DNA of 64,000 nt. Origin: Prevotella sp. Lineage in GTDB: Bacteria > Bacillota > Clostridia > Christensenellales > UBA1242. The stretch covers positions 2,023 to 66,022 of the forward strand of contig JAMPCO010000002.1 of assembly GCA_023666145.1 (NCBI GenBank). Direction: 5' to 3'. The notes below the pieces were generated by a model that saw only the letters and a list, made by a program, of their open reading frames with translations, did no database searches and was not told where the DNA came from. The translations under genes and the position numbers were made by a program. Every line of letters starts with the position of its first letter. Position 1 is the first letter of the stretch. Positions 21,352 through 62,126 of the stretch are shown here, one piece after another.

Positions 21352-24300
21352 TTAGAAACCGTTGGCTTTTTGACCCAAATTCTTGCCATCGATGGGTGAC
21401 TTTGTACCGTCGTAACTGTTCCAGAAATTGGTCACCAGGTAGGTTTTTTGCACCAACGTTTGGTACTCTGCATCAATACCGCTGGAATGTTCGCTGGTGT
21501 TGCAAATCCAATCGGGGCTGCCGTTTCTTGCCCAATATTTCATGTAATTGGTATAACCCGCGTAATTATTGGATTTGGAGTACACCGATTTTATCATTTT
21601 ACACGCTTTTTCAAAATAATCGTACGGGATGTACAGTTGGACGTATTCCCCATAATGCGGATAATGGTTATGATGGTCGATTTCTTTATGATCTTGGAAA
21701 TTGGATTCGTCCAAGCGTAAAATAACTTGTCCTTTGATAATGTCATGTTCATCACCTTTTTCACAAATGTACCAACCATAACGACCCAACCATTGGCGCA
21801 CTTGGTAGGCGGCGTGGGTGGTATCCTTGCATTCATAGACATTATTTTTGCCACCACACCATTCATCACAGGTTTTGGCAAATTTGGCATCATTGATGTA
21901 ACGTGTCGGATTAGCAAGAATTTTTTGCTGATCAATATATGTGCTCGACTCGTTAAATTCATCTTTACCAATTTTGCCGTCGTCACGGTATTTTTTCACA
22001 TCCAAACCACGGTCGATGGTCCAAATGGTGTAACGCTCGTTGTATTCGTAACGGTCTTTGACATCACGTTTGTGGTCGTCGTCCATGGGAGAATCTTTAT
22101 AATTTTCATAATAATCGGCACCTTTCCAACCATAACCGTCATCAAGTTCACCATAATCCTTAACCTTTCCCCAATGGTAATATTCAACCGGGAACAAATC
22201 GCCCGCATAAACCATTTGCGGCAAAACGTATTTGTTGTCGGTGACCATTCCCGTGGTTTCGTCCACGGTTTGTTCACCACTGCTGTAAATTTTGGGGAAG
22301 ACCGTGGTGCTGATTTGCCGTTTGTAAATCGGGGCGGTAATCGGGTCTTGCCCCGCGGTTTTACCCAATTTTGCCAAATATTCGACGTTGTTTTCGTATT
22401 TTTCCATGCGTTTCCACACGGCGAACGACTCCAAAGTCAACCAACCATTGGAAGAATTTTCTTCTTCGACGGTGGTGCCGTCCACTTCGGTTTCCATTGC
22501 GAAATCACCACGGGCGGCACGGTATTGTTCGTCGTACGCATAGACGTTAATCCATTCGCAATAATCGCGGTAGGTGATGAAGGGTTTACCATCGTTAATG
22601 TCGTGGTCATCATTATACCATTCGCGGCGGTACGCGACCAAATCCGTGGTACGGGATTCTTGCGTGACGGTTTCATAAAAGATGTCGGCACGAATGGTTT
22701 GATCCAATACCCAACGGTAATCCAGCGCCGTGAAATCGTCATCAATGGTCAAATCCTTTTTGACCAAATAAATGTAATGGTTCAGGCGGAAATATTTGAT
22801 GGTTCTTGTGTCACCTGAGCCAGGTGTATAATAATGGTTCTCTGCTTGTGCCCAATCAATGTAATTTGCGGCGGTATGTTTGGTGCGTAACAAATCCAAA
22901 TACGCCATACGGTCGGAGGAGAATTCAAGCGCATCCGCCAATTCGTTTTCGTCCGCAACATTACTCATAAAGGTACTTGCACTGTCAACACCCAAAACAT
23001 TGTTAAACGGATAATAATACGGCGTACCCGACGGCACACAACCTTTAATGTCGCTTTCGTTAACGGATTCCGCGTGCAATAATTTTTTGAACAACGCATA
23101 ATCGAAGTAGGTACTGTTCCATGTGCCGTCTTTGTATTGGGCGCCCAAAACAATTTCCACGTATTCGGCGGTGGTAAAGCCTTCGCTGACGAAACCCGAA
23201 AAACCGTACGACCAATCGTCCGCCAGGGTGTAACCCGCACTGCGGACGGTATATTGATTGTTGTTTTTCACGACGGCGTCCGTCGGCACAGATTGGGTCA
23301 TGGCGTGGGCTTTGATTTGGTCGAATTCCGCGGCGGTGAAACCTTGGGCGCGCCACCACAGAGCCTCTTCCAAGTAATCGGAGCGGTTGCCCGAACCTTC
23401 GTTATCGGCATTCGTGACGGTACGGTCGTTCGGCAAGATTTGGCGGACAATTTTGTAATAATGCCAACTAGAGTTATTGTCGTCGTCGGTGACAAGGCGG
23501 TAGAAATCGGCAACGTTTGCGGCGCATTCCGAAAGGAGTAAGATGTCACTGTCCGCCTTGCGCACGGCGGACTCCGCACCGCTGCTGCTGTGGGTGGCGG
23601 TACCGAACAATTTATTGCCGTCGACGTCCAAATACATGGCGGCGCCCAAGCCGTTTTGCGCGCTTAAATCAATACGATGATTCGACATAAAATTGTATTC
23701 GATGTCATCGCCATTTTTGAAAATGGAATCCTCGCCTAACGCTTGCAGGTACCACACGCCAACGGGCTCACCCGAGGTATACACATCGCCACTGGAATCC
23801 GTGTCGTTCCACCATTCGCCGCCAGAACTTACTTCTTGGGCGCTGTTTTGATAAACCGCGCGGACGTTGCCATTGGCGGTGGTATCAAGCACGACACCGT
23901 CGGTGGTCGCCGCCAAAGCGTATTGCAGATCGTACGTGTTGCCGTTAGCGTAATATTGGCGGATAAATTCGATTTGGGCGGTTGTCCAACCGTATTGTTC
24001 ACATTTCAACGCGAAAAGGTATTTATCCGTCGCGTACTTGTCATCGGCGTAATTTTGCAACAAGTCGTACAAGGTACCACCCATGCCAATCATTTCGCGG
24101 TATTTGGTGATGGTTAAGCCCAAGGTCGATTTTGCGGTCATATAGTTAGACAAGGCTTGCCATTGGGTTGTGTTGTTCGCAAGGGAAATTACGCCGTTTT
24201 CGGCTTGGACTTGGTCTTTTAGATATTTTGTCCAATCCGAGCCATTGCTTGCCCAGCCCAATTTGATGGCGCCGATGTCGCTGATTCGTGCACCGCCGTC

Positions 24301-41613: not shown

Positions 41614-41655
41614 ATGTTTTCCCCCAACGTTTTTCTTTTAACCTAGTATGTATAA

Positions 41656-41684
41656 ATTATATTTTTTATATGTCTTATCGTCAA
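41656..41684 (-). promoter_or_regulatory. Consensus sigma-A-type promoter of the 6753-aa gene
   Basis: Minus strand: TTGACG (41679-41684), 17 nt, then TATAAT (41656-41661). A 42-nt leader containing GTTGGGGGAA follows. Confidence 0.7.
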
Positions 41685-43334: not shown

Positions 43335-43343
43335 GTTTCCAGT

Positions 43344-45413: not shown

Positions 45414-46187
45414 ACGTTAAGTAGCGGGAGCGCGGGCAACATTACCTATATTGGCAGTGCGACCACAGGTATTTTAGTGGATGTTGGTTTACCTTTGTCG
45501 TTGACGTTAAAGTTAATGAGTCAAGCCGACATTGACCCCCACGCAATTACGGGCGTAGTCATCACCCATGAACACAGTGACCATGTGAAAGGTGTCGCCG
45601 ATTTCGTCACCCAATACAATGTCCCAATTTATTGTTATGAACGCAGTGCCAAAATTTTACGGCGTTGTTTGCAATTACCACCGCACCACTTTATTGAAAC
45701 CGCCAGCACTTTTGCCATCGGTGACATTACGGTCAAATGTTTTACCGTTCCCCACGACAGTCAATTTTGTTTAGGTTATACTTTTCAATGTGGGGACTCC
45801 ACCGTTGGGGTTGCGACGGACATTGGGCAAATGACCGACACGATTATTGCTAACTTGGCGACTTGCCAAATTGTGGTCTTGGAAAGCAACCACGACATTC
45901 AAAAATTGATGGCAAACCCCAAGTACCCGGACTGGCTGAAACGCCGCATTCTCGGCAACCGTGGACATTTGTCCAATCTGGATTGCGGACGTACCATCGC
46001 CAAACTTTACCAAGCCCACGTATCACAAGTTATTTTGGCGCACCTCAGTGAAAAAAACAATACCCCCACATTGGCATACCAGACCGTGAAACAATATCTA
46101 CAAACCCAAGGGATCACCGAAGGGAAAGACATTTACATTGATGTCGCCCGCCAAAGCCAAATCGGCAATTGTTATTGTTTAGAATAA
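45399..46187 (+). CDS. MBL-fold metallo-hydrolase (YycJ/WalJ-like)
   Basis: 262 aa with the HxHxDH motif in ITHEHSDHVKG, and later HLS...NN and a C-terminal H. Confidence 0.8.
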   Translation: MLKIQTLSSGSAGNITYIGSATTGILVDVGLPLSLTLKLMSQADIDPHAITGVVITHEHSDHVKGVADFVTQYNVPIYCYERSAKILRRCLQLPPHHFIETASTFAIGDITVKCFTVPHDSQFCLGYTFQCGDSTVGVATDIGQMTDTIIANLATCQIVVLESNHDIQKLMANPKYPDWLKRRILGNRGHLSNLDCGRTIAKLYQAHVSQVILAHLSEKNNTPTLAYQTVKQYLQTQGITEGKDIYIDVARQSQIGNCYCLE

Positions 46188-46189
46188 TT

Positions 46190-49100: not shown

Positions 49101-52100
49101 TATTCGGATAAAGCCCCAATAAAAGTAATGGCGTTTACGAAGTTACTGCCTTGAATTTGCACGCGATAATTGGTGGTGTGTCCCGCATAATCGGTTTCTG
49201 AGATGAAATAATATTTCATTTCATTATCACGTAAGCCGACCAATTGGGCGAAAGGAATGCGGGCTTCTCCGTCGGCACCTGTGTATAATTTGAATTGCAC
49301 GGCCGCTTGTGTCCCTTCCCCCGTGCTGTCAACTTCACGGTAAGTAATGATTTTCGCATCTAAATAGGGACTATGCTCGTGATCACTTTCAAAAACGAAT
49401 TCGTCACTTAAACCGTAGACATAATCACCAGGTAATTTTGTCATTGTGCAAGCCAAATTGTCGCCGTCTTTAATGCGATTAACGTTGTATTCTGGGTTAT
49501 GAATATCAAATAAAATCGTATAATTCGTCTGCGTATTGTCATATGTCGACAGCGTAACGGACAAACTGGCACCGTCGGAAATCGCGGTATTTTTCAAGAA
49601 ATCTTGCATTAAATCAAAAGTGTATTGGTGATTGATAGGTGTTGGCAACGCAAAAGCCACGTTCTGCGTAAAGCCGTTAGAGCGCCAACTGGCAATGGTG
49701 GCTTCCAGGTCGACGTCCGCATACATACTGGCGGGATCACTTTCAAAACGGAATTTTAATTGGTCAATTTGGGTGGGGTCGACCACGTAAACGTAACTGT
49801 CACCGTCGTATTCCATGCGTGAGTTACTGATGATTTTATCATTGTCCACCAAGATTGCGGCTTTAGTACCATAACCCGTATCCAAATTCAAAATCAAATA
49901 ATCATAATTAGCACTGGTGGGCGCGTTGGCATCGGCTTTTAATTCAACCATGTTGCCGTTAGCCAGCGAACACGAAAGACTGCGCGCGTTATCCGCCACC
50001 ACTAATTTATAAACGGTGCTATCACCGCGGCTGGCGGGGTCACCCACCGCCCAAGGTTCGGAAAGATAGCCCTCCCCCAAATTAATAGTTTGGTTTTGAT
50101 AAAGATAACTGAACCGCGGAATCAAGGCTGGGAATGTGTAATTCGGTGAGTCATAATTAGCCAAATAATTAGCGTATTCAATGGTGTAGGTGGTACTGTC
50201 GTGGTAGCAGGAATATTTGCTGTTGAAGCCCGTAATCCACGCGGTACGATTACTGCTTAATTCGTTGTGGTTCGCGGCAAAAACCGCGGCGTCGGCATCT
50301 TTGGCTTGCGGTGCTTGGGCGTTTTTGTTGTCCGCAAAATGGACTTTTAATTCGGTTTGATAGGATTTGGTTTCGTCGTTAAAATAAGCCAGCATTTTTT
50401 GGTCATCAACGATGAAATAATAATCACGCTCCTCTGTGTCCGAAAAACCAGCAGTGCCACCAGGTGTTTGTTCATAAATACGGGTAATAATATACATCCC
50501 CGACGGGGTTGTCGTTTTCGTGTTAAATAATGCCAAGCGAATGGTACCGCTGCTGTCACCTTCACTCACTGAATAAATTAACCCATTATTATCTTGACTG
50601 TTAAAGAGCCGATTGTTATTAGCGTCGCTCGGATTATTTTGGGGCTTTTCCGCAAACGGATAATTGGCGGACGTCGGATCATAGGTAAACGGATAATATT
50701 GTAAGTAAATTCGCTTCACACGGTAGTCTTCATTTTTGTCTTGTTGACAGAAAGAAAACGTGACATATGGTCGGTTGGTCATACCACCCGTATTGGTCAC
50801 TAAACTGGTTGCGGCACCGGGTTCGGTCGCAACCATCCCCCGATTACGATATTCCGAATCGGTTAAAAGACTGCAAGCGTCATAATTCGTTTCCGCATAA
50901 ACCATACCGAAGCAATTATCGTTCGTTAAAATCACATAATATTCGCCGACATTTCCCAACACGTCGGTCACACGGAAATAATATGTTCCTTCTTCCCACA
51001 GCACGACAAACCCGTTTTTGATGTCATCCAAAGGGAAAACTTCCTTGACATCACGGTAAATGGTCCCCGAACTACTGTATTCGATTTTGGACAAACCAAC
51101 ACTGACCGAAGTCGATAGACCTTTACCCGTACCACCGATTTCATCAACCAAACGTCCTGTTTCCCTTAAAGCGTTAAAGATTGCTCCATGTGTACCCGTA
51201 ATCATGACATGATTTTCGGATTGGTCGGTAATTAATTTCTGCGTACCAAAACCGATTTTAACACCTTGTTTGGCGTCCAATTTCACCGCATTGGTGGTAT
51301 CAATGGCGGATTCTGCACTTTGCACAAAAGTCGGTGTACTGGTATCAATGATCAACACGAAATAGGTTTCGTTACCAACATCATCAATCAAGGTAAAACG
51401 GTACAAACCCGCCGTGGTGAAAGTTTCGTTTAACGTCCAACCATCGTCAGTTTTAATCGGTTGATAACCATCATTGGGTCGGGAAGCGGTTTGGGAAAAT
51501 GCGTACGCGGCGTACAAATTAGTCGAAGTAGTTGTTCCGAAATTGGTGTAATTACGATCGGCATTGGGATCAACCCCATTATTCAATTTCATTTCATAAA
51601 ATTCACAAAGCACATTGTTGTAATCAATCCCACTGGATTTTTGGTCCCACGTTAAATTGACGGCCCCTGCCCCGACAATGGCAATATTTTCTGGTAAGCC
51701 CGTTAACGCTATGGCATCGGTATGGGCTTGAATACCTGTCGCCAGCGTATTATCCACCACGATGTTAAAGACCGAAGTAGATTTACCTTGGGCGCCGTAT
51801 TTAATCGTCAAACGGAACTGTCCTGGTTGCAACGAAAACGAGAATGCCCCGTTTTCGCCCATCGGGATTCCTAAATTGTGATATTCATAACTGCCAAAAT
51901 CGGCATAAGCCAAAGTTACTGTTGGTGGTACCTCAAATTGACCTAAAGTTGTGTTGCCGTCGTAATTGATTTTAATCGTTTTTCCGCTTAAAGTTTGATT
52001 CAACACTAATTCACCAACATAATATGTTTTTGGTTCGGGGTCATTTCCCGAGGTAACGTCAAAAGCGATTTTGGCAGCATTCACAATTTCAAAAAAGAAA

Positions 52101-54034
52101 GTTTGTTGACAAATTTCACCGTTCACTTTGAAGTAGACTGCAATCACATATTGACCTGCTTCTTCATACGGTGCACCAATTTCCAAGGTGGAACTGACCC
52201 ATTCGGATGTGTTGCCCGTACCGTTGGCGGCCTTAAACGCGACCGTAGACAAAACGGCAGCCGCTTCCCCATTGGTCCCCGCACCAGTAGCATGACCAAC
52301 ATTGCTGTATAATTTTACGGGCGGGAAATTCGTGCGGACGGGAACTAAACCGTTATTTGAGATGTAATTGGCCAATTCGGTCGAATAAGTCAAAGCGTCA
52401 CTAACCCGCATATTTTGGTAATCAACGACCGAACCGCTTTCTCCCGCCGTCATCTCGGCATTACGCACCCACGCGGAAATATCACTGCTGACTTCGGCAT
52501 CCAAACTGTCGTAAAAAGGTAATTGACCGTTTTTGCTTTCAGGATAAGTCACGGCATCGTACCCACCACCGTAATAGGCTTGGAAACCCAAAATATTTAA
52601 GATACTGGAATACGTCGCATAACGTTTCAAAGTGATATAACCTTTTTCTACGCCACGGTTGCGGAAATCATTTTCGCGGTTGAACAAGTACCAACTGTAA
52701 TAGCGTAGCGTTGAGGTCATATGATATTCGCCAATACGGTAAAATTGTAATTTGCGTTGCGCATCGTTTTGGTCATTTTCGGTAATTTTTTCGGTTGATT
52801 GCACCACGACATCAAAATAGTATGATGAATACGTTACCGTAGGATAGGTACTTTCGTAAGAATAATTGTAAATTTCACTGTTACCTGAGACACGATTACC
52901 CAGGTCAAAGCGCGGGAAATCGTTGTAGTTAATTTTATTGACGATCACAAACGCAATCGCAACGTCGACTTGAGAAAAAACACCATCCCCCATGGCAATT
53001 TTTTGTTTGAACGTAATTTGGTAAAAACCTTGTTCGCGGAACATACCACGTAACGCATTGGCATTATACGCGACCGCCCCAATTTTATAGTCGGTAAATT
53101 GGCTGTTTGTATAGCGGACTGTTCCTAACAAATTTTGTTCGGCTTCGGGTGTGCCATTGCGTGCATCGTAAACTTCGATCGCATTCCCCGTACGCACAAC
53201 ACGGTACAAATAAACACCTTTCTCGTCATAGAGTTGTGTTGTACCGTCGTTAATGGCCGTAATGGTTTCACCGCCCAAAAATAAATCATTGCCTGCGGCA
53301 TCTTTGATGGTGGCGGTATAACCGTTAACACTGTTGCTGTTGGGGGTACAAATTACCGTCAAGAGTACCGTACCATCGGTGTCGTCAATCGTATCTTCAA
53401 TTGTTGTCCCGCCAACCGCCGTTTGATTGGGAATCCCGGCGTAAACTTGTTCCGCGGTGTATTTGGCATCGACTTGGTAAATCTGATCGGATAAAGTCAC
53501 CCCGTCGCGGGTAATGGTCAAATCGCTCGGCATATCCGTGATATTTGTCAATTCTAACAAGACCACATCGTCGTAGTTATATGGGTCCAACATGACCACA
53601 GGAATTTCTAAATTGTTACCCAAGCCAGTGGCAATTTGGCGCATTTCAGTATTGGAAAAAATCGGGTAAGAATAACCATTTTGACTGTTAATTTGAAAAT
53701 CACGGAATTCGTCATAAGATGGTCGGTTGGTACCACTGGTTTCCATGTTCAAAAAATTGGTCAGGCTGCTGCGCGTATAACGTTCTTCCAATAAGGTTAA
53801 CGTCGTACTCTGCCCCAGCGTAACGGTTCCCGTATCGGTCGCATCAAATGGGATGCGTGCGTACAAATCGTCAAAAGTCGGAATATAATTGGGGTCAAGG
53901 ATGGGCGTTTCACTGTCGGCGGCGTTGGTATGAAAAGGACGGTAATTTAAGAATAACCCCGAACCAAACAAAGCCAGCACCATTGTCACGCTTAAAATGG
54001 TCAGCGCAATTATCCTGCCACGGCTGTATTTCAT
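46190..54034 (-). CDS. Giant (2614 aa) surface protein with an N-terminal signal/anchor and a C-terminal TM tail anchor
   Basis: An uninterrupted 7,845-nt ORF with an ATG start, a GGGGGAA SD and its own consensus promoter. The N-terminus is RIIALTILSVTMVLALFGSGLF. The C-terminus is GYIILAVVLGVAGVGILVFMRMRRKMTTK. Recurrent domain-end strands include YRFTLIDDVGNETYFVLIIDTSTP, YYFRVTDVLGNVGEYYVIL and YTVKAFDAEGDLIY. Confidence 0.9.
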   Translation of the reverse strand: MKYSRGRIIALTILSVTMVLALFGSGLFLNYRPFHTNAADSETPILDPNYIPTFDDLYARIPFDATDTGTVTLGQSTTLTLLEERYTRSSLTNFLNMETSGTNRPSYDEFRDFQINSQNGYSYPIFSNTEMRQIATGLGNNLEIPVVMLDPYNYDDVVLLELTNITDMPSDLTITRDGVTLSDQIYQVDAKYTAEQVYAGIPNQTAVGGTTIEDTIDDTDGTVLLTVICTPNSNSVNGYTATIKDAAGNDLFLGGETITAINDGTTQLYDEKGVYLYRVVRTGNAIEVYDARNGTPEAEQNLLGTVRYTNSQFTDYKIGAVAYNANALRGMFREQGFYQITFKQKIAMGDGVFSQVDVAIAFVIVNKINYNDFPRFDLGNRVSGNSEIYNYSYESTYPTVTYSSYYFDVVVQSTEKITENDQNDAQRKLQFYRIGEYHMTSTLRYYSWYLFNRENDFRNRGVEKGYITLKRYATYSSILNILGFQAYYGGGYDAVTYPESKNGQLPFYDSLDAEVSSDISAWVRNAEMTAGESGSVVDYQNMRVSDALTYSTELANYISNNGLVPVRTNFPPVKLYSNVGHATGAGTNGEAAAVLSTVAFKAANGTGNTSEWVSSTLEIGAPYEEAGQYVIAVYFKVNGEICQQTFFFEIVNAAKIAFDVTSGNDPEPKTYYVGELVLNQTLSGKTIKINYDGNTTLGQFEVPPTVTLAYADFGSYEYHNLGIPMGENGAFSFSLQPGQFRLTIKYGAQGKSTSVFNIVVDNTLATGIQAHTDAIALTGLPENIAIVGAGAVNLTWDQKSSGIDYNNVLCEFYEMKLNNGVDPNADRNYTNFGTTTSTNLYAAYAFSQTASRPNDGYQPIKTDDGWTLNETFTTAGLYRFTLIDDVGNETYFVLIIDTSTPTFVQSAESAIDTTNAVKLDAKQGVKIGFGTQKLITDQSENHVMITGTHGAIFNALRETGRLVDEIGGTGKGLSTSVSVGLSKIEYSSSGTIYRDVKEVFPLDDIKNGFVVLWEEGTYYFRVTDVLGNVGEYYVILTNDNCFGMVYAETNYDACSLLTDSEYRNRGMVATEPGAATSLVTNTGGMTNRPYVTFSFCQQDKNEDYRVKRIYLQYYPFTYDPTSANYPFAEKPQNNPSDANNNRLFNSQDNNGLIYSVSEGDSSGTIRLALFNTKTTTPSGMYIITRIYEQTPGGTAGFSDTEERDYYFIVDDQKMLAYFNDETKSYQTELKVHFADNKNAQAPQAKDADAAVFAANHNELSSNRTAWITGFNSKYSCYHDSTTYTIEYANYLANYDSPNYTFPALIPRFSYLYQNQTINLGEGYLSEPWAVGDPASRGDSTVYKLVVADNARSLSCSLANGNMVELKADANAPTSANYDYLILNLDTGYGTKAAILVDNDKIISNSRMEYDGDSYVYVVDPTQIDQLKFRFESDPASMYADVDLEATIASWRSNGFTQNVAFALPTPINHQYTFDLMQDFLKNTAISDGASLSVTLSTYDNTQTNYTILFDIHNPEYNVNRIKDGDNLACTMTKLPGDYVYGLSDEFVFESDHEHSPYLDAKIITYREVDSTGEGTQAAVQFKLYTGADGEARIPFAQLVGLRDNEMKYYFISETDYAGHTTNYRVQIQGSNFVNAITFIGALSEYEDANTKIGVEMHASSSSVHQFFVRNHSFKFESGDEHYTVLGSTASWHIGDDIGTGSASEEKLLNALNNWINVSTEKGTKCSYTLYDRIGEIEVFDFYNIRESAAKVQLDCYQTSLSSNIIMAVVTNYDDLPAILFNEDLVSLFKIKVEDKTEPDASFDGYFSLYGTQIRSPVTHELVITVTDPFGRTSVTEYHQQTQSTIIFDYYGNTVTENGVLYIGDERGVNFSYLSTVYKVLIYDAGTGELLSDLQSFISNNMISYQFVPQQEASTIQQYHIVATGRASGAILFEQTFVFDTRLPSVEWKNSSDQTIEVEDQTFVSAVIFDISKSLVPTAFPVSVSYVRTLGNYVERVTLRAGTQKYTFDQEGSYEVTVRNAVWAKKTYKFEIVQIDDTLVLVYDGDKLLQASPSEYKFNDTYIPRYVFAMKENSNGSIPLANYQAHNLRIQVGQTNRTLAGNPILGTDYFYYDEINATLVWRLAFQTGEVDGIPAYTSPIYFATTGVTPNELNKGTAISLRLNGNPVGSGNNFVVSPSTTTYHEITNSFMEAHDKKVEVSLYCEDILTDDFGAPCNLVRGNVILVDCYYNGKLIKTISYGEVFTINQYDAGFYEFTVHDLVDSYLYFGSNKSDKNDILYRQERYMLAVMTKPLVLINNKEPVNDMVYNDQVELKLVDYGHEFLTKRYASELEQDENFFRSHFCITKMEVQYTGSNGTSRNNIAVNGSQSVFYWSNTGSYHIRLTYSLGTNISDTLQAEYQFQIIPAYTIRESFSMPILPNIQVVSVTRDGYKVHDVDKLQVNESMNFNADDNPGSYVVTLRTYNNILEDYITHEVRFNIRHKANSAANYFVLSSGSGTSTVGAVALYYNPYWLYSTQGEMTIYLYKDFVEQERVTVNASALSSGNYDSLQLFNVSNTGLYTVKAFDAEGDLIYSDSWTVEEEQSTFGYIILAVVLGVAGVGILVFMRMRRKMTTK

Positions 54035-54062
54035 TCGTGTTCCCCCAACATAGTATGCCTAA

Positions 54063-54091
54063 ATTATAATTTTAATATTTGAAATCGTCAA
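54063..54091 (-). promoter_or_regulatory. Consensus sigma-A-type promoter of the 2614-aa gene
   Basis: Minus strand: TTGACG (54086-54091), 17 nt, then TATAAT (54063-54068). It starts 15 nt after the stop of the upstream ATPase gene. Confidence 0.7.
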
Positions 54092-54105
54092 TCAATTCAA
54101 ACGGC

Positions 54106-56100
54106 TTACCATTCAAACAAGTCACGACGTTCGGCGGTATTCACACGACGAATCACAATATCATTACGGCGGTGAATATCGTAATAAATCGATGCTTCGT
54201 CGAAAAACTTACCCGGGATATAAATATCGGGTGTCGGTAGCAATTTAATCGCACCCCGATTCAAGCATTCATAAAACAGCGTAACCTTACTGCGTAACGG
54301 GTGGAACGTGAAGCAATACACGAAAATATTGCCTGGCACAATATCCAACAATTCATTCGGTGGCAATAACGGACGGCTGGCGGTATTGGTGGCCGTTGAT
54401 TTACTGCCCCCTTCGGAATCGTTTTTCGCGGCTTTACCAGTGTTACGGCTGACGGTCGTACTTTCGGTGGTAATTTCCATATCCCCCATTAAATCGGAGA
54501 ACATTTTGCGCGTGTCCGTATCGTTGACACCAACAAAAACTTGGTGGTTGCAGTTATTACGTACCGTGACCGCGGTTTCTGCCCCGTACGTTGTTTCTAA
54601 CTGTTTATAATCTTGTAACACCAAGGTGAAGAAAATGCGGCGCGAACGCGAAACCGTAATCACGGTCGCGAAGTCATTGATTTTCGGCATATTACCAAAT
54701 TCGTCTAACACAAAGTACGTTGGCCACGGTAATTTGCCCCCACGTTCGTTCGCACTGGCCACCAACGATTTGTATAATTGGGAAATACACAATGTTGCCA
54801 ACGGATGGCGGACTTTAATTTGGTCGGGAATAATCAAAAAGAACGCCGTTGGTTTCTTGGCAAACTCATCGAATTTGATGTCGGTACCACTGGTAATGTA
54901 GCAAATGCCTTTATCGTTAAACATGGATAATTTTTGTGTCACAATCCCAAAGTAGTTGCGCATCGTGTTGTCGGCGTTTGATGTTACGGTCTGTGCCAAC
55001 GAAGCCGCAACCGACAAGTGGTCACGCCCTTCAAAATAATTCTTAATTGTCTTAAAGACGGCTTGGGGGTCATTATCACGAATGGATAAAATTTTATAGA
55101 TGTTATAGAAGTTAAATTTTTCGCGGGTCATTCCTAAATTGGGATTCAGGCTGTCTTCCAACATTGCCATGGCCGTACCTTGAATCATATCGCGTGCGCC
55201 CTGTTCCCAACTGGGGTCTTTTTCATTTTCAATCGGGCAAATCGCCGAACAGATGTCTTTAATATCGGCTTCCGCATCCGAAATCAATTGTTGGCGCAAA
55301 GTGCGCATTTCGTTTTCCGCCATTTCCTTGTTGGGGAAAGCAATCCCATTAAAAGCGTACCAAACGGGGGGATAACTGCTGGCGATAACACGTAAACCCA
55401 TTTTGGCGGGGTTAGCATTTTCGTAACGCTGAATTTCACGTTCCAAATGTTGCGCCCGTTGGAACATATCCCACGGCCTTTCAAACGGATTCCAACGTGA
55501 ACTGCGGATGGGGTCGTTCAAGTTAAACACCTGGACGTCATAACCTTGATGACGTAAACTTTCCGCCAAAGTATTATAAATTTCCCCTTTCGGATCGGTA
55601 ATCACCAAATTGGGCTTTTGATTGGAAAAACCCAGCGTATACAAAAACGGGAACACGTAACCTTGGGTTTTGGCGGCACCCGTCGTTCCCAAAATAATGG
55701 AGTGGAAATCTTTGGTAACCATGTTGATGTGAATATCACTGCCAATCAATTCAAAGCGCGCCAAGGGACCCGTTTGCTTTAACGATGATAATTGTGAGGC
55801 CTTGGTATAGATGTAGACTTTATCGCGTTCGGCGTCGGTCATCCAACGGTTAGAATAATATTGCGAAACGCCTTTTTTTTTCTTTTTGCCGTCGACATCC
55901 AAATATTTGAACAAAGCGAACGCCAACAGTCCCAACGGAACCAAAATCATTCCCGTACGGAAAAGACTATCATTCAAACCCAGGGGACTCATTATTTCAC
56001 GTCCATTCAACACATTTGTCGCCGCCAACAAGGCAACCACCACAACAATCAAACCACCAAGAATGATGAATGCCCATTTCCCCAATTTTTGTAAATTCAT
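54106..56100 (-). CDS. Type IV coupling protein-like ATPase (VirD4/TraG/TraD family), orphan
   Basis: 664 aa. Two N-terminal TM segments are present (WAFIILGGLIVVVVALLAA, ILVPLGLLAFALF). The P-loop is ILGTTGAAKTQG, followed by VITDPKGEIY and the Walker B sequence YFVLDEFGNMP, then FFTLVLQDYKQLE. This layout matches the T4SS-DNA_transf/TraG-D_C families as I know them. Confidence 0.75.
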   Translation of the reverse strand: MNLQKLGKWAFIILGGLIVVVVALLAATNVLNGREIMSPLGLNDSLFRTGMILVPLGLLAFALFKYLDVDGKKKKKGVSQYYSNRWMTDAERDKVYIYTKASQLSSLKQTGPLARFELIGSDIHINMVTKDFHSIILGTTGAAKTQGYVFPFLYTLGFSNQKPNLVITDPKGEIYNTLAESLRHQGYDVQVFNLNDPIRSSRWNPFERPWDMFQRAQHLEREIQRYENANPAKMGLRVIASSYPPVWYAFNGIAFPNKEMAENEMRTLRQQLISDAEADIKDICSAICPIENEKDPSWEQGARDMIQGTAMAMLEDSLNPNLGMTREKFNFYNIYKILSIRDNDPQAVFKTIKNYFEGRDHLSVAASLAQTVTSNADNTMRNYFGIVTQKLSMFNDKGICYITSGTDIKFDEFAKKPTAFFLIIPDQIKVRHPLATLCISQLYKSLVASANERGGKLPWPTYFVLDEFGNMPKINDFATVITVSRSRRIFFTLVLQDYKQLETTYGAETAVTVRNNCNHQVFVGVNDTDTRKMFSDLMGDMEITTESTTVSRNTGKAAKNDSEGGSKSTATNTASRPLLPPNELLDIVPGNIFVYCFTFHPLRSKVTLFYECLNRGAIKLLPTPDIYIPGKFFDEASIYYDIHRRNDIVIRRVNTAERRDLFEW

Positions 56101-56123
56101 ATTAACAATATAATAATTGAGAT

Positions 56124-56930
56124 TTAATCAATTAGGCAACTTGATTTTTGACAGTAAGATATTAACGCTTGCAACAAAGTCACTTTCAAAGAACGGCGTG
56201 TATCACTTTGCGCTTGTGTCCCCAGCATCTGCCAATGGGTAACATCAGTCAAAGTATCGCTGAAAAACACAAATTGTGCGAAACGGATACCCAAACGTTG
56301 CGCCGCTGCCGCAAAGCCCGCACATTCCATTTCAACCACCACCGCCCCCTGTTCACGGCGTTTCGCACAACGCACCGTGGTTTCGCGAAACATCGCATCC
56401 ATCGTCCAAGTAATTCCCCGCACCACTTTCATCCCGCCGCTTTGTAAAAATTTTTCCAGCCAAGCGGTTAACTGGGGATTAGTTGCCACATAAAGGGACG
56501 GTGGCAAATAATGATAACTGGCACCTTCGTCACGAATGGCTTTTTCAATCAACACACACGCGTCATCCGCAATCCGTGCATCCAACAAGCCCGCCGTACC
56601 ATACGCAATCACATTTTCAACCCCTAAGTACTTCAATTCCTCAATCACGGCGGCCGCGACGGGACTCCCTACCGTCATCAAAACGATGAAACATTGGTCA
56701 CGGTATTGGTAAATGGGAATTTTTCCCGAACGACCGTAAACGTAATACAATAACCGACTTTCCGCCAAGATTGGTGCTAACGCAGTACGGTCAAGATTTT
56801 CGCACAAGAACGTACAAAACGCAGTTTTGATTGGCACATCCAATTTGATTTGTCGATCGCCGTGCATAGCACTGGGTGTGATAATCGGTGCATCGTCAAA
56901 AAACTCTGCAATCGGTGGTAACTGCCCCAT
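56124..56930 (-). CDS. Nucleoside phosphorylase, PNP_UDP_1 family (uridine/purine nucleoside phosphorylase-like)
   Basis: 268 aa with the sequences AYGTAGLL, RDEGASYHY and VVEMECAGFAAAA. Its start shares one base with the upstream stop (TAATG). Confidence 0.7.
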   Translation of the reverse strand: MGQLPPIAEFFDDAPIITPSAMHGDRQIKLDVPIKTAFCTFLCENLDRTALAPILAESRLLYYVYGRSGKIPIYQYRDQCFIVLMTVGSPVAAAVIEELKYLGVENVIAYGTAGLLDARIADDACVLIEKAIRDEGASYHYLPPSLYVATNPQLTAWLEKFLQSGGMKVVRGITWTMDAMFRETTVRCAKRREQGAVVVEMECAGFAAAAQRLGIRFAQFVFFSDTLTDVTHWQMLGTQAQSDTRRSLKVTLLQALISYCQKSSCLID

Positions 56931-58429
56931 TACAAAATTTCCACATTCTTTTTATAAATCTTGGAAAATTCTTTACCCAATTTTTGCAATTGGTAAATTT
57001 CGGTTTTCGCCGCGTCCACATCAACCTTAACTTTTTTCATGTCGGTTTCGGTAATCAATTTGATAATTACGCTATCGCCTAACACATCGCACGAAATGTC
57101 TTTCACCACTTTTTGGTGACGCAGATTGATGGTATCCGCCATCGCTTCAATAATTGCCAGTTTACGCACCGCCATCAAATCTTCTTCTTCCATTAAATCC
57201 TTGTACTTGACCCATTCTGCCAACATGAAATCGTCCCAGTTACGGCAACTGGCAACGAACGCCGCCATGACAATTTCTTTGTGGCTCAGTCCGTATAAGT
57301 TTGCATTCAAAATGGCGTAATAGGTAATTTTACTGAAATTTTGTTTGTTGATGTTGACACCCAAATTCGACAATAAGGTCGCAACTTTCAAAATGCGGGT
57401 AAACGCACGTGGCAATTTGTGTAAGACCTTTAATTGTAGATACAGTGTGCTTGCCAAAAAGTATTGGTACTTGACGCTGTCTAAATCCAAATTGTTCGCC
57501 CAGATAATTGTTTCCACACTGTTTAGGCAAACGTCGTTGACGGGTTTATCATCTTCTTGCATCGTTAAACGGTGGGCGATACCCACATTACGGCCGTGAC
57601 GGTTAACGACGATTTTATTCAAATTAGTAAATTCCATAACCGCCAAAGCCAACGACATCCCGTTCATTAAATAACCAATCCCATTCGCCGTAATACCTTT
57701 CAATTTAGCACCACGTTCGACGTCCAATCCTTGCAAGAAAGTTAAGATTTCCGCGAAGTGCGTTTTGTCACTGTTGTAATTGTGGTCAACGTCAAACGGA
57801 TACTTTAATTTCTTACGGGATAAGCGCGCGAAGCCCGTGAAAATTTCACTGGAACCAATCACGGGAATTTCGGGGTCAACTTGTTTGAACGGTTCACCCG
57901 CCGCTTGCAACAAATTATTAAAATCTGCGACCGAAGTAAAATTTGCCGCGCCCATGGGAATGGTCGCACTGTTCAAAATCACACGACGACAATAATAAAC
58001 TAAACGCGTACTGGATGTTGAAACCGCCACAATTAAACCTTTGGCGATGTCAATCGTATTCACCACCGCGGTGTACAAGAGATTGACTTCCTCTTCTTCG
58101 GTTAATAATTTGAATTCCAAATCCAAGTCCGCGTTGATTTCTTCCAAGAATGAAATATAATTTTTCGCAGCGGTCAAATTAGCAGAGGCAACACAGTGGT
58201 ACTTGGTTACGCCGTTGGCAATCGCCAATTGTTTATACATTTGCAAAATATTGATACATTCTTTAATTTTTACGGTTTTAATCAATTCGCTGTTGGCCTG
58301 TAAATGTTGTTCGATACCGACATTTTCGGTGTACTCTTTTTCGACTTCAAAATACTTACTTTCTTCAATGCGCACAATCGACAATTTGATTTGATTGGTG
58401 CCTAACTCCATAATTGCAACTTTTGTCAT
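56930..58429 (-). CDS. Ppx/GppA-family phosphatase with a C-terminal HD-like domain
   Basis: 499 aa. The N-terminus VAIMELGTNQIKLSIVRI matches the Ppx/GppA pattern iDlGSNs-x-rL. The length and two-part layout are typical of exopolyphosphatase/pppGpp phosphohydrolase. Confidence 0.7.
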   Translation of the reverse strand: MTKVAIMELGTNQIKLSIVRIEESKYFEVEKEYTENVGIEQHLQANSELIKTVKIKECINILQMYKQLAIANGVTKYHCVASANLTAAKNYISFLEEINADLDLEFKLLTEEEEVNLLYTAVVNTIDIAKGLIVAVSTSSTRLVYYCRRVILNSATIPMGAANFTSVADFNNLLQAAGEPFKQVDPEIPVIGSSEIFTGFARLSRKKLKYPFDVDHNYNSDKTHFAEILTFLQGLDVERGAKLKGITANGIGYLMNGMSLALAVMEFTNLNKIVVNRHGRNVGIAHRLTMQEDDKPVNDVCLNSVETIIWANNLDLDSVKYQYFLASTLYLQLKVLHKLPRAFTRILKVATLLSNLGVNINKQNFSKITYYAILNANLYGLSHKEIVMAAFVASCRNWDDFMLAEWVKYKDLMEEEDLMAVRKLAIIEAMADTINLRHQKVVKDISCDVLGDSVIIKLITETDMKKVKVDVDAAKTEIYQLQKLGKEFSKIYKKNVEIL

Positions 58430-58435
58430 GGTGAA

Positions 58436-58464
58436 ATTTTACCATAAAGATTTGATTTTGTATA
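58436..58464 (-). promoter_or_regulatory. Promoter of the ppx-like gene, abutting its ATG
   Basis: Minus strand: TATACA (58459-58464), 17 nt, then TGG-TAAAAT (extended -10, 58436-58441), then 6 nt to the ATG at 58429. No SD is present. Confidence 0.5.
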
Positions 58465-58547
58465 GGTCTTCGTTGAAAGTTTTTTCCTTGCTAAAAGCGG
58501 CGATTTTAGTGTAGACTATCACTTATAGGTAGATGGAGAAAATGATA

Positions 58548-61214
58548 ATGAAAAAGTTCTGCAAATTGATGACACTCGTCTTAGTCATGGCCTTACTTTT
58601 GTTGACCCCAGGTGCGCCCGTGGCGGTCAATGCTTTGGCAAATTTAACCACCGTAAAGTCAACAGAGCAATATACTGCCCCCACGCAAAACGAAATGCTC
58701 AGTTTTGAATCCGTTGGTGATTATGGTTTAGATACTTGGAACGCACCAACGGGCAACTATTTGGTCAGCCAGCAGGTCACCGCCGAAACCAACAATAAAT
58801 TTCATGAAGAGTATCCTGACAATACCTTATCGACCGCTGGAATCAATAACAACTCGCCTTATGTCATTGCCACCAATACCTTGAATATGCCCGCCAACGG
58901 CGCTTACACCACCAACGCCATTACTTTAGCGGCGAATGGCTGTTACCAAATTACGGTTAATTATTATGTGGTCGAACAAAAAAATAATACCACACACAGT
59001 TCTGCCTTTGGGACTTTTTATTTGAACGATCAAGCCATCACCCTGTTACCACAAAACCAATGGGCGTCTGCGGCATTTTATGTGCGTACCGATCGATTAG
59101 CAACGGCGACCGTCACACCTGAATTGTATTTCGGTTCCCGCACGGATAACGCGTTGGGTGCAATTTATTTTGATAAGTTCACCGTTAACGCTATTAACCA
59201 AAAAACTTTTCATAACGCGGTAGCCGAATGCGATCCAACGTGCTATCTCGATTTTACCGCTGACGATGAATATGTTTTGGTAAAAGCATTTAAGAACCAA
59301 GCATTTACCACCACCACAACTACCAACGGAGAAAGTTACAACGATCTACCAACCGCCAGTATCCCAGAAAAATTAGGATTCCAAGCCGAGCAATCCTATT
59401 TCTATCCCCAAAGTGGCAACACCAATAACGTCATGTTGATGAAAGCCAATAATTCTGACACGGCTTTAACCTTGGAAGGTTACACCTTCCAACCGCGTCC
59501 GCATGAAGTTTATATGTTCCAATTTTATTCGATTGCCACCGCGGCAGAAGACTTTACTGGTTTTTATTTCATGATTGGTGACACCGCCGAAGAAATTGCG
59601 AGTTTGAGCAGTTATCCTTACCACAACGGCTGGCAACTGAATACAATTTTCTTCATTGCTGGTCATGACTTAGATCAAGAATACCAATTAAGTTTTAATT
59701 TAGGTAACGGCAGCGCGGTCACTGGTTGGGCTTGTATTGACGATTTTAACATTTATAAAGTCAACGGTAGTTACGCCGCTGATAATCGTTCCGCGGTTGG
59801 TGTACATGACACATATGATCAAAACGCCGATACCGCAACCACGGACATTGCGAATGGTTATTTTGAATCGGGTACCGCCGCGAACAACGTTAATCAACAA
59901 GACAGCAGTTACCCCTACCCGTTAATAGCCGATGATTGGGAAACCAGCAGCACAACGAATGGGATTGTTAATTTATCGTCGTCATCCTGGCGCGACCGTT
60001 TTGGCGACCATCCTGGTTTCATCAACAACAATGATGAAAATAATCACGTTTATATGATGTACAACAGCACCCCTACCACCAACGTGGTTACCAGTCCTGC
60101 CCTGTCGACGACCATTGGCGCGACTACTTACATCTCATTTGATGCCTACAGTTACACCACAACCCAAACCCGTGCTTATATTTTCTCCGCTGAAACCGAT
60201 GATGATGGTAATATCACCAACGAAATTATGTTAGGCAGTTACCTTGACATTAACAATCATGCTTGGCACCATTACGAATTTGCGATTATTGAAAGTGAAT
60301 ATGCCACCACACGATCCTATTATTTGCGCTTTGCAATGACGGGAATTGGTTATGCCTATTTTGATAACGTCCGTTCGACAACCGATGGGGCGTTCCAGTT
60401 TGCTACGGAGACACAAACCGACGCCGCTACCGTTGACTTAAACAATTTGTTATCCATCGATAAAGCGTGGCAAGCCACCGACGGTGTAACCGAATTTTAT
60501 TGTGGTGCCACCAAAAACGGCCTAACTTTGGAAAACAGTAATGGTCAAAAAACCATCGTGCAAAATACGTTCGACTACAATTTAACCACTGACAATTATT
60601 ACGAAGTTGTGATTTACGCACATGGCGTTAACGCTTATTTGGGTCTGAGCAATTACGACGGTTTACTGGCAGTCACCACGGATACGGTCAACGAAAATAT
60701 GTTGTACCCATACAAATTATATTTGCAACCAAGTGAAGAGGCGACCACCGTCAATTTTCAAGTTACCTTAGGCTACGTAACCGACGACGCGGACGACACC
60801 ACCGCCCCGATTGCTGACGGCAGCATTTTTATCAGCAGTTTTGAAATTAACAGTATTACCGAAGATGAATATAATCATGCCAGCGAAAACGCTACCAACG
60901 ATGCGCGTATGAAAGTTTTATCCCTAACTACCGAAACTGATGAAGTTGTTGATGATACCACCAGTGGCGGTTCCAGTAGTAACAATTTTTTCGGGGAAAA
61001 CTGGTGGTACTTGGTACCAACCTTAATTACCGCGTTGGCTTTGCTTTTGGCGATTGGTACTTTCTTATTCCGTAAAATTAAATTTGATAAACACATCACC
61101 AAGAAAAATACATCTTATGCCCGCGATATGCGTTTGAAAAATCAACAGAAGAAAATTGTTGCTCAAAAAGCCACAAAAGTAGATAATGTAACCGATGAGT
61201 CGCAAAGTAACTAA
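58548..61214 (+). CDS. Secreted, C-terminally TM-anchored protein with about four jelly-roll/CBM-like domains
   Basis: I prefer the ATG at 58548, which has a GGAGAA SD 7 nt upstream; the track start is 58533. The signal peptide is KKFCKLMTLVLVMALLLLTPGAPVAVNALA. Recurrent domain ends are IYFDKFTVNAI, ACIDDFNIYKV, AYFDNVRST and IFISSFEINSI. The C-terminal TM LVPTLITALALLLAIGTFLF is followed by a basic tail. Confidence 0.75.
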   Translation: MKKFCKLMTLVLVMALLLLTPGAPVAVNALANLTTVKSTEQYTAPTQNEMLSFESVGDYGLDTWNAPTGNYLVSQQVTAETNNKFHEEYPDNTLSTAGINNNSPYVIATNTLNMPANGAYTTNAITLAANGCYQITVNYYVVEQKNNTTHSSAFGTFYLNDQAITLLPQNQWASAAFYVRTDRLATATVTPELYFGSRTDNALGAIYFDKFTVNAINQKTFHNAVAECDPTCYLDFTADDEYVLVKAFKNQAFTTTTTTNGESYNDLPTASIPEKLGFQAEQSYFYPQSGNTNNVMLMKANNSDTALTLEGYTFQPRPHEVYMFQFYSIATAAEDFTGFYFMIGDTAEEIASLSSYPYHNGWQLNTIFFIAGHDLDQEYQLSFNLGNGSAVTGWACIDDFNIYKVNGSYAADNRSAVGVHDTYDQNADTATTDIANGYFESGTAANNVNQQDSSYPYPLIADDWETSSTTNGIVNLSSSSWRDRFGDHPGFINNNDENNHVYMMYNSTPTTNVVTSPALSTTIGATTYISFDAYSYTTTQTRAYIFSAETDDDGNITNEIMLGSYLDINNHAWHHYEFAIIESEYATTRSYYLRFAMTGIGYAYFDNVRSTTDGAFQFATETQTDAATVDLNNLLSIDKAWQATDGVTEFYCGATKNGLTLENSNGQKTIVQNTFDYNLTTDNYYEVVIYAHGVNAYLGLSNYDGLLAVTTDTVNENMLYPYKLYLQPSEEATTVNFQVTLGYVTDDADDTTAPIADGSIFISSFEINSITEDEYNHASENATNDARMKVLSLTTETDEVVDDTTSGGSSSNNFFGENWWYLVPTLITALALLLAIGTFLFRKIKFDKHITKKNTSYARDMRLKNQQKKIVAQKATKVDNVTDESQSN

Positions 61215-61707
61215 ATCAATCATTTGCGTAGTCATACTTGCCGCGATCATTGGTGTGGGCGTTGGTGTATATTTACATTACAATCAAGGGCCAATCGTCG
61301 GCAAGATTGTTTATGGTCAAAAGTATTATTTGCAAGATATACGTCCAACCGAACGTTTTGCGGGCGCCACAATGAACTCCGCCAGTTATTTTGAAATCAA
61401 TTACGACAAAAAGACTGGCAAACTGTATTTGGCTGGCTTGGAAGCCACTACTGCCCCCATTCCTTTCATTGTCACCAATTACAAAGAAGGCGTCAAACAA
61501 ACTACCATCGAATTTGAATATCTCATCGACCAAGGCGAAGAAACCCAATTACAACACTTACAAGCCGTCAGTGACGATTCTGGCATTCGCATCAAAGCGG
61601 TTGAATCGCACGGTGTCGAGGTCATCCAACAAAATGTGGACAAAGATTTGCAATCATTAGATTATGAAGTCACAATTTTGTTCTTTGCCAAACCGGAGGC
61701 GGCATGA
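61195..61707 (+). CDS. Small N-terminally anchored protein, unknown function
   Basis: 170 aa with the TM IICVVILAAIIGVGVGVYL. It overlaps the upstream gene by 20 nt. Confidence 0.6.
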   Translation: MSRKVTKSIICVVILAAIIGVGVGVYLHYNQGPIVGKIVYGQKYYLQDIRPTERFAGATMNSASYFEINYDKKTGKLYLAGLEATTAPIPFIVTNYKEGVKQTTIEFEYLIDQGEETQLQHLQAVSDDSGIRIKAVESHGVEVIQQNVDKDLQSLDYEVTILFFAKPEAA

Positions 61708-62126
61708 CCAAACAACGCGGAATTAAAATTGCCATTATTTGTGCTGTGATTGTGGTACTACTCGTCGGTGCTAGTCTGCTGGTTTACTTCAATTTTTTTA
61801 ATAAAATGTCATACCACTTGGTCGGCGTCGAAATTACGGATTGCACCGTCAGCGATTTTACCGACCAAACCGAATTGGAATTTTTCCAGGACGGCACTTT
61901 TCATTTGCAAATTAAACACAAAGAAAAAGGCCTATTATTAACGGGCATCGGCACTTACGTTTTTGAAAATCAAACCTATCAACTGAATTTTATCCAAGCC
62001 TACGCCCGTGACACCAACAATACGGTGGTGGACATTACCGAACAATGCAAAGACATAACTTGTGTACGCTCGGGTAACCGCATAAAATTAATGGACCACA
62101 AATCGCAAATCTATTATTTCGGGTAA
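61704..62126 (+). CDS. Small N-terminally anchored protein, unknown function
   Basis: 140 aa with the TM IAIICAVIVVLLVGASLLVYF. An ATGA start/stop overlap links it to the preceding gene. Confidence 0.6.
   Translation: MTKQRGIKIAIICAVIVVLLVGASLLVYFNFFNKMSYHLVGVEITDCTVSDFTDQTELEFFQDGTFHLQIKHKEKGLLLTGIGTYVFENQTYQLNFIQAYARDTNNTVVDITEQCKDITCVRSGNRIKLMDHKSQIYYFG

Follow-up and report, generated by a model that had tools for sequence, protein, structure and literature searches.

Coupling protein and giant gene in a chromosomal setting

A 64-kb stretch of DNA (64,000 nucleotides of contig JAMPCO010000002.1, GenBank assembly GCA_023666145.1; referred to as the window and numbered from its first nucleotide) from a genome labelled Prevotella sp. 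and assigned by GTDB to the Christensenellales (Clostridia) encodes a VirD4/TraG-type type IV coupling protein (T4CP) and, directly downstream on the same strand, a giant protein of 2614 amino acids (G2614), and this pair of genes is the subject of the present analysis. A first-pass annotation of the window had placed the pair in a single envelope-directed neighbourhood of about 40 kb, together with a second giant of 6753 amino acids (G6753), and had regarded the coupling protein as an orphan. The features needed to follow the argument are:

54106-56100 (-): T4CP, VirD4/TraG-type coupling protein, 664 amino acids (open reading frame (ORF) plus Pfam/NCBIfam)
54063-54091 (-): promoter TTGACG-N17-TATAAT before G2614 (pattern scan of the window)
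46190-54034 (-): G2614, 2614 amino acids (ORF list, coordinates confirmed)
41656-41684 (-): promoter TTGACG-N17-TATAAT before G6753 (pattern scan of the window)
21352-41613 (-): G6753, 6753 amino acids (ORF list, coordinates confirmed)

The T4CP is a genuine VirD4/TraG-type coupling protein, with matches to PF02534 (1.9e-48; 165.9 bits, cut-off 20.1), PF12696 (TraG-D_C; 8.7e-31; 106.9 bits, cut-off 22), PF10412 (TrwB_AAD_bind; 3.7e-24) and the NCBIfam model NF045973 for VirD4-like conjugal transfer proteins of the CD1115 family (281.5 bits, cut-off 250). Two N-terminal transmembrane (TM) segments start at residues ~3 and ~45, the Walker B motif (YFVLDEFG) is intact, and TrwB is the only PDB sequence match. 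Membership in a known defence system was considered using PADLOC and rejected, the sole match being a weak one of the T4CP to mad8.

The surroundings of the pair are those of a chromosome, because the window contains housekeeping genes, among them those for NusA, RimP, PheS, PheT, RecD2 and tadA; a glycosyltransferase, Hsp20 and an M19/M14 peptidase also belong to its housekeeping part. No major ORF in the window has a match to a relaxase, VirB4, VirB6, integrase, sortase or SLH domain, and Rep/Par genes are likewise missing among the window ORFs. Past the right end of the window, the syntenic relatives have genes for YetF, DUF4363 and an ABC-F protein, with neither a relaxase nor VirB4 just beyond that end. 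Within these 64 kb there is thus no element combining relaxase, integrase, replication-partition genes and VirB4, as an integrative conjugative element (ICE) or conjugative plasmid would, and the T4CP has no mating-pore or relaxase partner. Much of the first-pass annotation was borne out by these checks, including the ORFs and their coordinates, the tadA, metallo-beta-lactamase (MBL) and two CPBP genes (ORF list, Pfam and NCBIfam), the N-terminal anchors on both giants and on the smaller surface proteins, the placement of the ATPase in the T4CP family by profile hidden Markov model (HMM), the chromosomal context and the lack of a local conjugation module.

Architecture and promoter of the giant gene

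G2614 consists of an N-terminal signal/anchor, a non-repetitive, beta-rich ectodomain in which no internal repeats were detected, and, following a C-terminal TM helix, a conserved basic tail that ends in RMRRKMTTK-COOH. The same plan recurs in every complete member of the family, with ectodomains of ~2,500-2,900 amino acids. The short, basic tail has a fixed length and the form R-x-[KR]-M-x-x-[KR]-COOH, and is kept despite an overall identity of ~17%. The consensus ectodomain holds several GxYxxxxxDxAGN-type motifs, and a motif preceding the TM helix (EPLNT) is found in the distant clades only. The giants had no match in Pfam (G2614 by itself and, in separate scans, 18 members of the family), NCBIfam, PADLOC or a PDB profile search.

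The sequence TTGACG-N17-TATAAT occurs exactly twice in 64 kb, each time just upstream of a giant ORF, as the first-pass annotation had pointed out for both giants; 0 occurrences are expected by chance. The promoter of G2614, the -35 box of which lies ~14 nucleotides from the T4CP stop codon, is followed by a leader (CATACTATGTTGGGGGAA) and a ribosome-binding site, and is kept in every locus of the window clade (L009-L017, L021). In distant loci the spacer between the T4CP and giant genes measures ~170-350 nucleotides and is AT-rich in the clades with T4CPs ~40% identical to that of the window. The promoter regions of the two giants in the window (41640-41684 and 54040-54091, minus strand) also share TATAATTTAnnCATACTA at the predicted transcription start and a ribosome-binding region, GTTGGGGGAA, which suggests, from sequence likeness, a common regulation of two otherwise unrelated megaproteins.

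Conservation of the pair across uncultured Clostridia

Scanning species-representative genomes gave 80 loci, every one in a metagenome-assembled genome (MAG) of gut, rumen or termite origin with a label such as Clostridia, Christensenellales or Eubacteriales. The ORFs from 84 loci were clustered all-versus-all, and 61 loci had enough flanking sequence to be informative: nine from the window clade, four from a clade with T4CPs ~60% identical and 48 more distant. T4CP homologues are numerous in the MAGs of uncultured Clostridia/Christensenellaceae, where they form a tight clade at ≥56% identity, followed by a gap to ~44%. The closest plasmid-borne T4CPs are ≤30% identical to the T4CP of the window and contigs in IMG/VR contain only T4CPs whose best-matching segment is 26-38% identical. 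GC content did not separate the T4CP clades.

In 30 of the 61 informative loci, at T4CP identities of 37-92%, the gene that directly follows the T4CP on its strand encodes a homologue of the giant (9/9 in the window clade, 3/4 in the ~60% clade and 18/48 of the more distant loci), a positive outcome for the linkage that had been put forward as a test of the first-pass annotation. Four further loci have the giant elsewhere and six have a different family of ~2,000 amino acids. The housekeeping genes around the pair vary from locus to locus (ScpAB, rpoA-rplQ, LeuRS, MetRS, Mfd, MetK, P-type ATPase), and in the rearranged loci L035, L043 and L057 the giant still adjoins the cluster. Because the placement is conserved across loci with differing housekeeping neighbours, the linkage of T4CP and giant is real.

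Where the T4CP is 80-92% identical, synteny extends over the full order MOP-P140-P170-P893 / Ppx-PNP-T4CP-G2614-MBL-CPBP-CPBP, and beyond these closest relatives the conserved part is T4CP followed by G2614, plus, less strictly, the MBL gene. Divergence within the syntenic stretch is uneven. Compared with locus L009, the T4CP (92%), Ppx (94%) and MBL (92%) are highly similar, as against 66% for G2614, 64% for P893, 66% for P170 and 61% for P140. The T4CP is 88-92% identical to its relatives while the adjacent giant is only 44-66% identical, and therefore purifying selection on the T4CP is indicated.

Six independent loci, spanning the T4CP clades, have right behind the giant gene a gene for a Rho-like protein that lacks a Walker A motif and has weak matches to Rho_RNA_bind and ATP-synt_ab (L001 20337-21242, L002 19718-20608, L103 19669-20967, L061 20810-21982, L021 19612-20502 and L022 14493-15680). 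This protein might aid the transcription of very long genes. The gene is absent from the window, where the stop codon of G2614 abuts that of the MBL gene. Members of the ~60% clade also have a second giant ORF upstream of the rpoA-(rplQ in L002)-T4CP stretch, at L002 1-6208 (3,584 amino acids as called, reaching the end of the locus) and L103 2-5263 (at least 1,754 amino acids). The second giant in L002 is followed by two paralogous lipoprotein-like genes and has no similarity to G6753.

A type IV secretion-like gene set in distant relatives

In most cases in the ~40% clades, genes for pilins, a VirB6-like protein and a VirB4-like protein stand ahead of the T4CP-giant pair and are read divergently from it, in the order VirB4-like <- VirB6-like <- pilin(s) <> T4CP -> giant (L006, L042, L061, L089 and others). 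The pilins, found in 37 loci, are one to four small two-TM proteins matching the Pfam family T4SS_pilin (PF18895). The VirB6-like protein (~830 amino acids, five to seven TM segments; 25 loci) is assigned from topology and position alone and has no Pfam match. The VirB4-like protein is an ATPase of ~890 amino acids with two N-terminal TM segments and matches to PF19044 (P-loop_TraG), AAA_10 and DUF87. Among the 83 non-redundant fetched loci, 15 have it beside the T4CP-giant pair, as does L089, which carries a clade-B T4CP. VirB4-like proteins are numerous and 51-77% identical to one another; the best 120 matches of a profile search were all 51-100% identical to the first sequence of the query. 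In the ~60% clade, a pilin gene lies directly upstream of the T4CP in two metagenome loci, L101 and L103.

Because relatives at ~40% identity carry these VirB4-like, VirB6-like and pilin genes beside the T4CP-giant pair, the earlier description of the T4CP as an orphan fails for the wider family; it holds for the 64 kb of the window, where no partners occur. The compact clusters are flanked by genes for MetRS, Mfd, P-type ATPase, Wzy, Spo0A-like and PBP5 proteins. Among the neighbours across the 84 loci there was no recurrent relaxase-like or integrase-like family, and the annotated flanking genes were housekeeping genes.

After the VirB4-like gene, several loci encode large Lys/Glu-rich proteins without TM segments (L089 13090-17715, L006 1-3869 and L061 1-1689), ranging from at least 563 amino acids, where the end of the locus is reached, to 1,847 amino acids. 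These are candidate cargo or accessory proteins. A role as a conserved relaxase was considered and rejected because the proteins of L089, L006 and L061 have no similarity to each other.

Other surface proteins and neighbouring genes

The rest of the 40 kb and its flanks are made up of the following features:

20248-21291: ORF of 347 amino acids, convergent with G6753, unannotated and syntenic in L090
41700-43334 (-): P544, 544 amino acids (ORF list, coordinates confirmed)
43344-45413 (-): tadA-type deaminase and two tandem CPBP (Rce1-like) intramembrane proteases (Pfam)
45399-46187 (+): MBL-fold hydrolase, 262 amino acids, convergent with G2614 (Pfam Lactamase_B_2, 4.8e-20)
56124-56930 (-): PNP_UDP_1 phosphorylase, 268 amino acids, upstream of T4CP (Pfam)
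56930-58429 (-): Ppx/GppA phosphatase, 499 amino acids, upstream of T4CP (Pfam)
58533-61214 (+): P893, 893 amino acids, with N-terminal signal and C-terminal TM helix
61195-61707 (+): P170, 170 amino acids, small anchored protein in the P893 operon
61704-62126 (+): P140, 140 amino acids, small anchored protein in the P893 operon
62205-63791: MOP/Polysacc_synt gene

N-terminal hydrophobic segments are present on G6753, G2614, P544, P893, P170 and P140. Beyond this shared trait, G6753, P544 and the P893-P170-P140 operon are, as judged from sequence comparison, separate, lineage-specific and fast-evolving surface proteins, with no counterparts beyond the closest relatives. G6753 has an N-terminal anchor and lacks the C-terminal TM helix and basic tail. 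It has no Pfam match, no internal repeats and no similarity to G2614 or to the giants of the other fetched loci. Its C-terminal 1500 amino acids have only two homologues (41-49% identity) in a collection of 5.8 billion proteins, one of them syntenic beside RecD2-PheST in a MAG with a T4CP 89% identical to that of the window. The last ~350 residues (21352-22400) are less rich in Ser/Thr/Asn and more charged, contain Cys and His clusters and are 15% aromatic; this C-terminal end has no Pfam match and could be a distinct enzymatic or toxin-like domain.

P544 has no Pfam or NCBIfam match and no homologue in any fetched locus. A model from AlphaFold2 (AF2) without an alignment (mean pLDDT 59) has a beta-strand core at residues 180-400 (pLDDT 75-90) and no PDB match at E<1 in Foldseek, so that the beta-helix-like fold proposed earlier is only weakly suggested. 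P544 is an N-terminally anchored protein with a probable beta-solenoid core. P893, P170 and P140 have no Pfam or NCBIfam match; their orthologues, 41-66% identical, occur only in loci with a T4CP ≥80% identical.

The tadA, CPBP and MBL genes are housekeeping neighbours, as are the Ppx and PNP genes, which stand outside the T4CP system and keep synteny only within the window clade. The last two, between the T4CP and the P893 operon, had been overlooked in the first-pass annotation, and the MOP gene it had included lies past the end of its interval. MBL orthologues 47-55% identical occupy the same position just beyond the giant in the ~60% clade (L001, L002/L102, L103). The CPBP proteins match Mrt-type NCBIfam models far below the cut-offs, have sub-threshold NCBIfam matches only, and lie close to the T4CP in no more than 12 of the 84 loci. 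A tandem CPBP pair was also seen within 10 kb of T4CPs only 38-39% identical (L060 1120-3821, L047 9208-11431, L064 11636-13800), with tadA preceding the pair in L060. Shared descent from an old chromosomal neighbourhood could explain this recurrence, as could a functional link between the CPBP proteases and the system. In the housekeeping part of the window, a protein of 571 amino acids with ~10 TM segments (9931-11646, minus strand) and two small membrane proteins (8773-9874, minus strand) have no Pfam family; none of them was matched by the VirB6-like HMM.

The uneven divergence and the missing counterparts in other loci indicate that the 40 kb comprise several independently evolving surface-protein genes and not one system. 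Comparative genomics thus does not support the proposed single neighbourhood, and of the two megaproteins to which the T4CP had been linked, the 2614-amino-acid protein retains that link and the 6753-amino-acid protein, without counterparts outside the closest relatives, does not.

Interpretation and alternatives

The window holds only a part of the apparatus seen in distant relatives, and most of the 40 kb is unrelated to the T4CP-giant module. With moderate confidence, we interpret T4CP and G2614 as a conserved two-gene module of a chromosomal, relaxase-less, minimal and non-conjugative cell-contact apparatus resembling a type IV secretion system (T4SS), which in the window lineage is separated from, or without, the other parts. 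The module would comprise the gene for a VirD4-type coupling protein, followed by that for a protein of ~2,600 amino acids exported via Sec and held in the membrane by its C-terminal helix, and would be inherited with the chromosome in uncultured Clostridia of the gut, the rumen and termites (Christensenellales and related groups). The compact apparatus would combine the T4CP and the giant with a VirB3/VirB4-like ATPase, a polytopic channel protein of VirB6 type and one to four VirB2-like pilins. The rapidly diversifying ectodomain of the giant would act as an adhesin that contacts a target surface, either another cell or host material, and cargo may pass through the envelope by way of the T4SS-like channel, where the T4CP would receive the substrates. 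A candidate signal for docking or sorting is the short, basic cytoplasmic tail of the giant, which is invariant. For the window lineage, we envisage a module separated from the other T4SS genes, which are either elsewhere in the genome or lost, and a T4CP that may be less a motor than a scaffold or receptor because its P-loop has drifted from the consensus. A more specific version, in which a vertically inherited, non-conjugative T4SS variant uses the hypervariable giant as a target-recognition arm coupled to the T4CP through the tail, with a stand-alone pair and a non-canonical ATPase in the window lineage, seems to us unlikely.

Several observations weigh against the interpretation of T4CP and G2614 as a module of a T4SS-like apparatus. 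HMMs for the VirB4-like, VirB6-like and pilin proteins, built from the relatives, had no match in the window, in which the VirB4-family ATPase, PF18895 pilin and VirB6-like protein that mark a monoderm (MPF-FATA-like) T4SS are missing, and the loci of the window clade have no gene of these three types within 10 kb of their T4CP. The Walker A motif of the T4CP, GTTGAAKT (residues 138-145; 55665-55688 of the window), departs from the canonical GxxGxGK[ST] in that the Gly before the Lys is replaced by Ala, while the Lys and Thr are kept. A canonical motif is present in only one of 13 window-clade homologues, compared with 50/60 in the clade at 60-71% identity and 45/45 in distant clades; the window-clade variants are AAKT, ANKT and SSKT, with the Gly before the Lys lost in 12 of the 13, and the ten non-canonical motifs among the 60 of the 60-71% clade include GK-G variants. 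In P-loop NTPases such as Ras (G15A), loss of the glycine preceding the lysine weakens nucleotide binding, and the deviant motif could mean, judging from sequence, that motor function has been lost in the window clade. The deviation was observed only in lineages for which no VirB4-like or VirB6-like gene was found beside the T4CP. Further, no domain is identifiable in G2614, an AF2 model of its C-terminal 700 amino acids without an alignment having a pLDDT of 35; about one-third of the informative loci lack a giant at a distance of up to 10 kb from the T4CP; and several distant loci have a terminator-like hairpin after the T4CP gene and before the giant gene. These hairpins and the giant's own promoter indicate that the two genes are transcribed separately and that their adjacency does not reflect co-transcription.

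The same gaps in the window clade lend themselves to other explanations, one of which is that the locus is a decaying or domesticated remnant of an ancient ICE, with the mating-pore genes lost and the T4CP inactive or repurposed. Such an origin would account for a T4CP belonging to the conjugation family CD1115, for the lack of T4SS partner genes in the window and the flanks of its clade, for the altered Walker A in 12/13 homologues and for the absence from the window of the Rho-like gene found after the giant in other clades. A remnant of this kind is difficult to reconcile with a T4CP under apparent purifying selection (88-92% conserved beside a giant at 44-66%), with a conserved promoter before the giant, with VirB4-like proteins 51-77% identical in the wider clade and with the position of the clusters amid housekeeping genes in many lineages, the annotated flanking genes including neither an integrase nor a relaxase. 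We consider the remnant doubtful, and the decayed integrative-element cargo offered as an alternative in the first-pass annotation is accordingly not favoured. Quite improbable, in our view, is the leading suggestion of that annotation, that the coupling ATPase alone, without a T4SS channel, energises the export, assembly or hand-off of the megaproteins. T4SS substrates can bear positively charged C-terminal signals, and the conserved basic cytoplasmic tail of the giant, the strictly conserved order of T4CP and giant and the lack of local channel genes in the window clade are all in keeping with that idea. The giant has, however, a classical N-terminal signal/anchor, for which Sec export would be sufficient, and this Sec-type N-terminus, the giant's own promoter, the hairpins in distant loci and the deviant P-loop together make export powered by the ATPase unlikely. 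The P-loop deviates precisely in the window clade, and T4CP and giant are separate transcription units. G6753 has no C-terminal TM helix, basic tail or conserved link to the T4CP, and the T4CPs of the wider family are accompanied by VirB4-like, VirB6-like and pilin genes.

Separate promoters, the terminator-like hairpins of the distant loci, the third of loci without a nearby giant and the presence in the window of other fast-evolving surface proteins unrelated to T4SS would also be expected if there were no functional link at all, with the two genes kept side by side only by an inherited order and the giant serving generally as an adhesin or as a coat protein of S-layer type. Inherited order does not readily explain why the pair persists amid changing housekeeping genes and over the whole range of T4CP identities (37-92%), nor why the giant remains beside the cluster in the three rearranged loci, and we hold this explanation to be very improbable.

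The proposed module would have consequences beyond this locus. Non-conjugative T4SS are well known in diderm pathogens, have recently been proposed for Patescibacteria and are barely documented in free-living or commensal Gram-positives. The gene set, found in many uncultured Clostridia of the gut, the rumen and termites, suggests that a contact-dependent interaction system is widespread in a group to which the Christensenellaceae belong, a family that draws attention in connection with host health. The gene set also offers a concrete handle on the role of at least one family of domain-less bacterial giant proteins, and the small number of genes, the conserved cytoplasmic tail and the natural series of P-loop variants should make the system amenable to testing in a cultured member or after heterologous expression.

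Comparison with known systems

A full-text search of a limited collection of papers found no description of this Clostridial T4SS gene set. As a protein, the T4CP resembles the conjugative T4CPs of Firmicutes (NF045973, CD1115 family; TrwB, PDB 1E9R) in its PF02534, PF12696 and PF10412 matches, its two N-terminal TM helices and its Walker B motif. It differs in being ≤30% identical to any plasmid-borne member, in its Walker A (GTTGAAKT), in a chromosomal housekeeping context where no relaxase/oriT-type partner was seen, and in having a membrane-anchored protein of ~2,600 amino acids as a conserved downstream partner. The type IV-like system of Streptococcus suis 89K (VirD4-89K/VirB4-89K) is said to be a minimal Gram-positive T4SS set in which the VirD4 homologue does not serve plain conjugation, and is reportedly carried on a mobile pathogenicity island; we know of no giant partner protein in this system. 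Likened by description only, the 89K system shares the minimal Gram-positive T4SS and differs in its location on a mobile pathogenicity island. Mrt/myxosortase-like sorting systems combine a three-part C-terminus (motif, TM helix, basic cluster) with a neighbouring CPBP protease of their own; all complete giants end in a TM helix and basic tail, and the CPBP proteins of the window score far under the cut-offs of the Mrt-type families.

The Hodor conjugative megaplasmids of the human gut encode VirB4, VirB6 and VirD4 together with giants of ~7,300 and ~2,640 amino acids (Yuan et al. 2026 preprint, PMC12934698), and the window is similar in having two giant surface proteins of sizes strikingly close to these, a GC content of ~45% and a Bacillota host. 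The Hodor giants contain S-layer/MBG domains, and the elements carry sortases, Rep_3/Par genes and a MOBH-like relaxase (PMC12934698), whereas the window has no S-layer/MBG domains, sortases, Rep_3/ParAB or MOBH-like relaxase and contains essential housekeeping genes. Identity with a Hodor megaplasmid was rejected, as the window lacks these Hodor features and the IMG/VR T4CPs are only as similar as noted above. A looser parallel is found in the Omnitrophota, where giant genes beside loci resembling type II secretion systems (T2SS) or type IV pili have been read as devices for cell contact or attachment (West-Roberts et al. 2023 preprint, doi 10.1101/2023.11.21.568195). These giants likewise have few recognisable domains and are conserved beside a secretion or pilus cluster, but they belong to another phylum, exceed 30,000 amino acids with many TM regions and adjoin T2SS/type IV pilus-like genes in place of a T4SS.

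The closest analogue is the T4SS of Patescibacteria (Candidate Phyla Radiation, CPR), which is chromosomal, relaxase-less and derived from MPF-FATA, with the t4cp gene often far from virB4 and a non-conjugative function proposed (Quinonero-Coronel et al. 2025, PMC12102498). By gene content, the two share a monoderm-type VirB4, a VirB6-like protein, PF18895/VirB2-like pilins, a VirD4-type T4CP and a lack of relaxases; in both, the T4CP gene frequently lies at a distance from virB4 and a function besides conjugation is proposed. The present gene set differs in its occurrence in Bacillota/Clostridia and in the tight pairing of the T4CP with a giant anchored surface protein, a feature unreported in PMC12102498. 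Under the more specific version considered unlikely above, these Clostridia would possess a Gram-positive machine of the cell-to-cell delivery or episymbiosis type, comparable to the T4SS of Patescibacteria.

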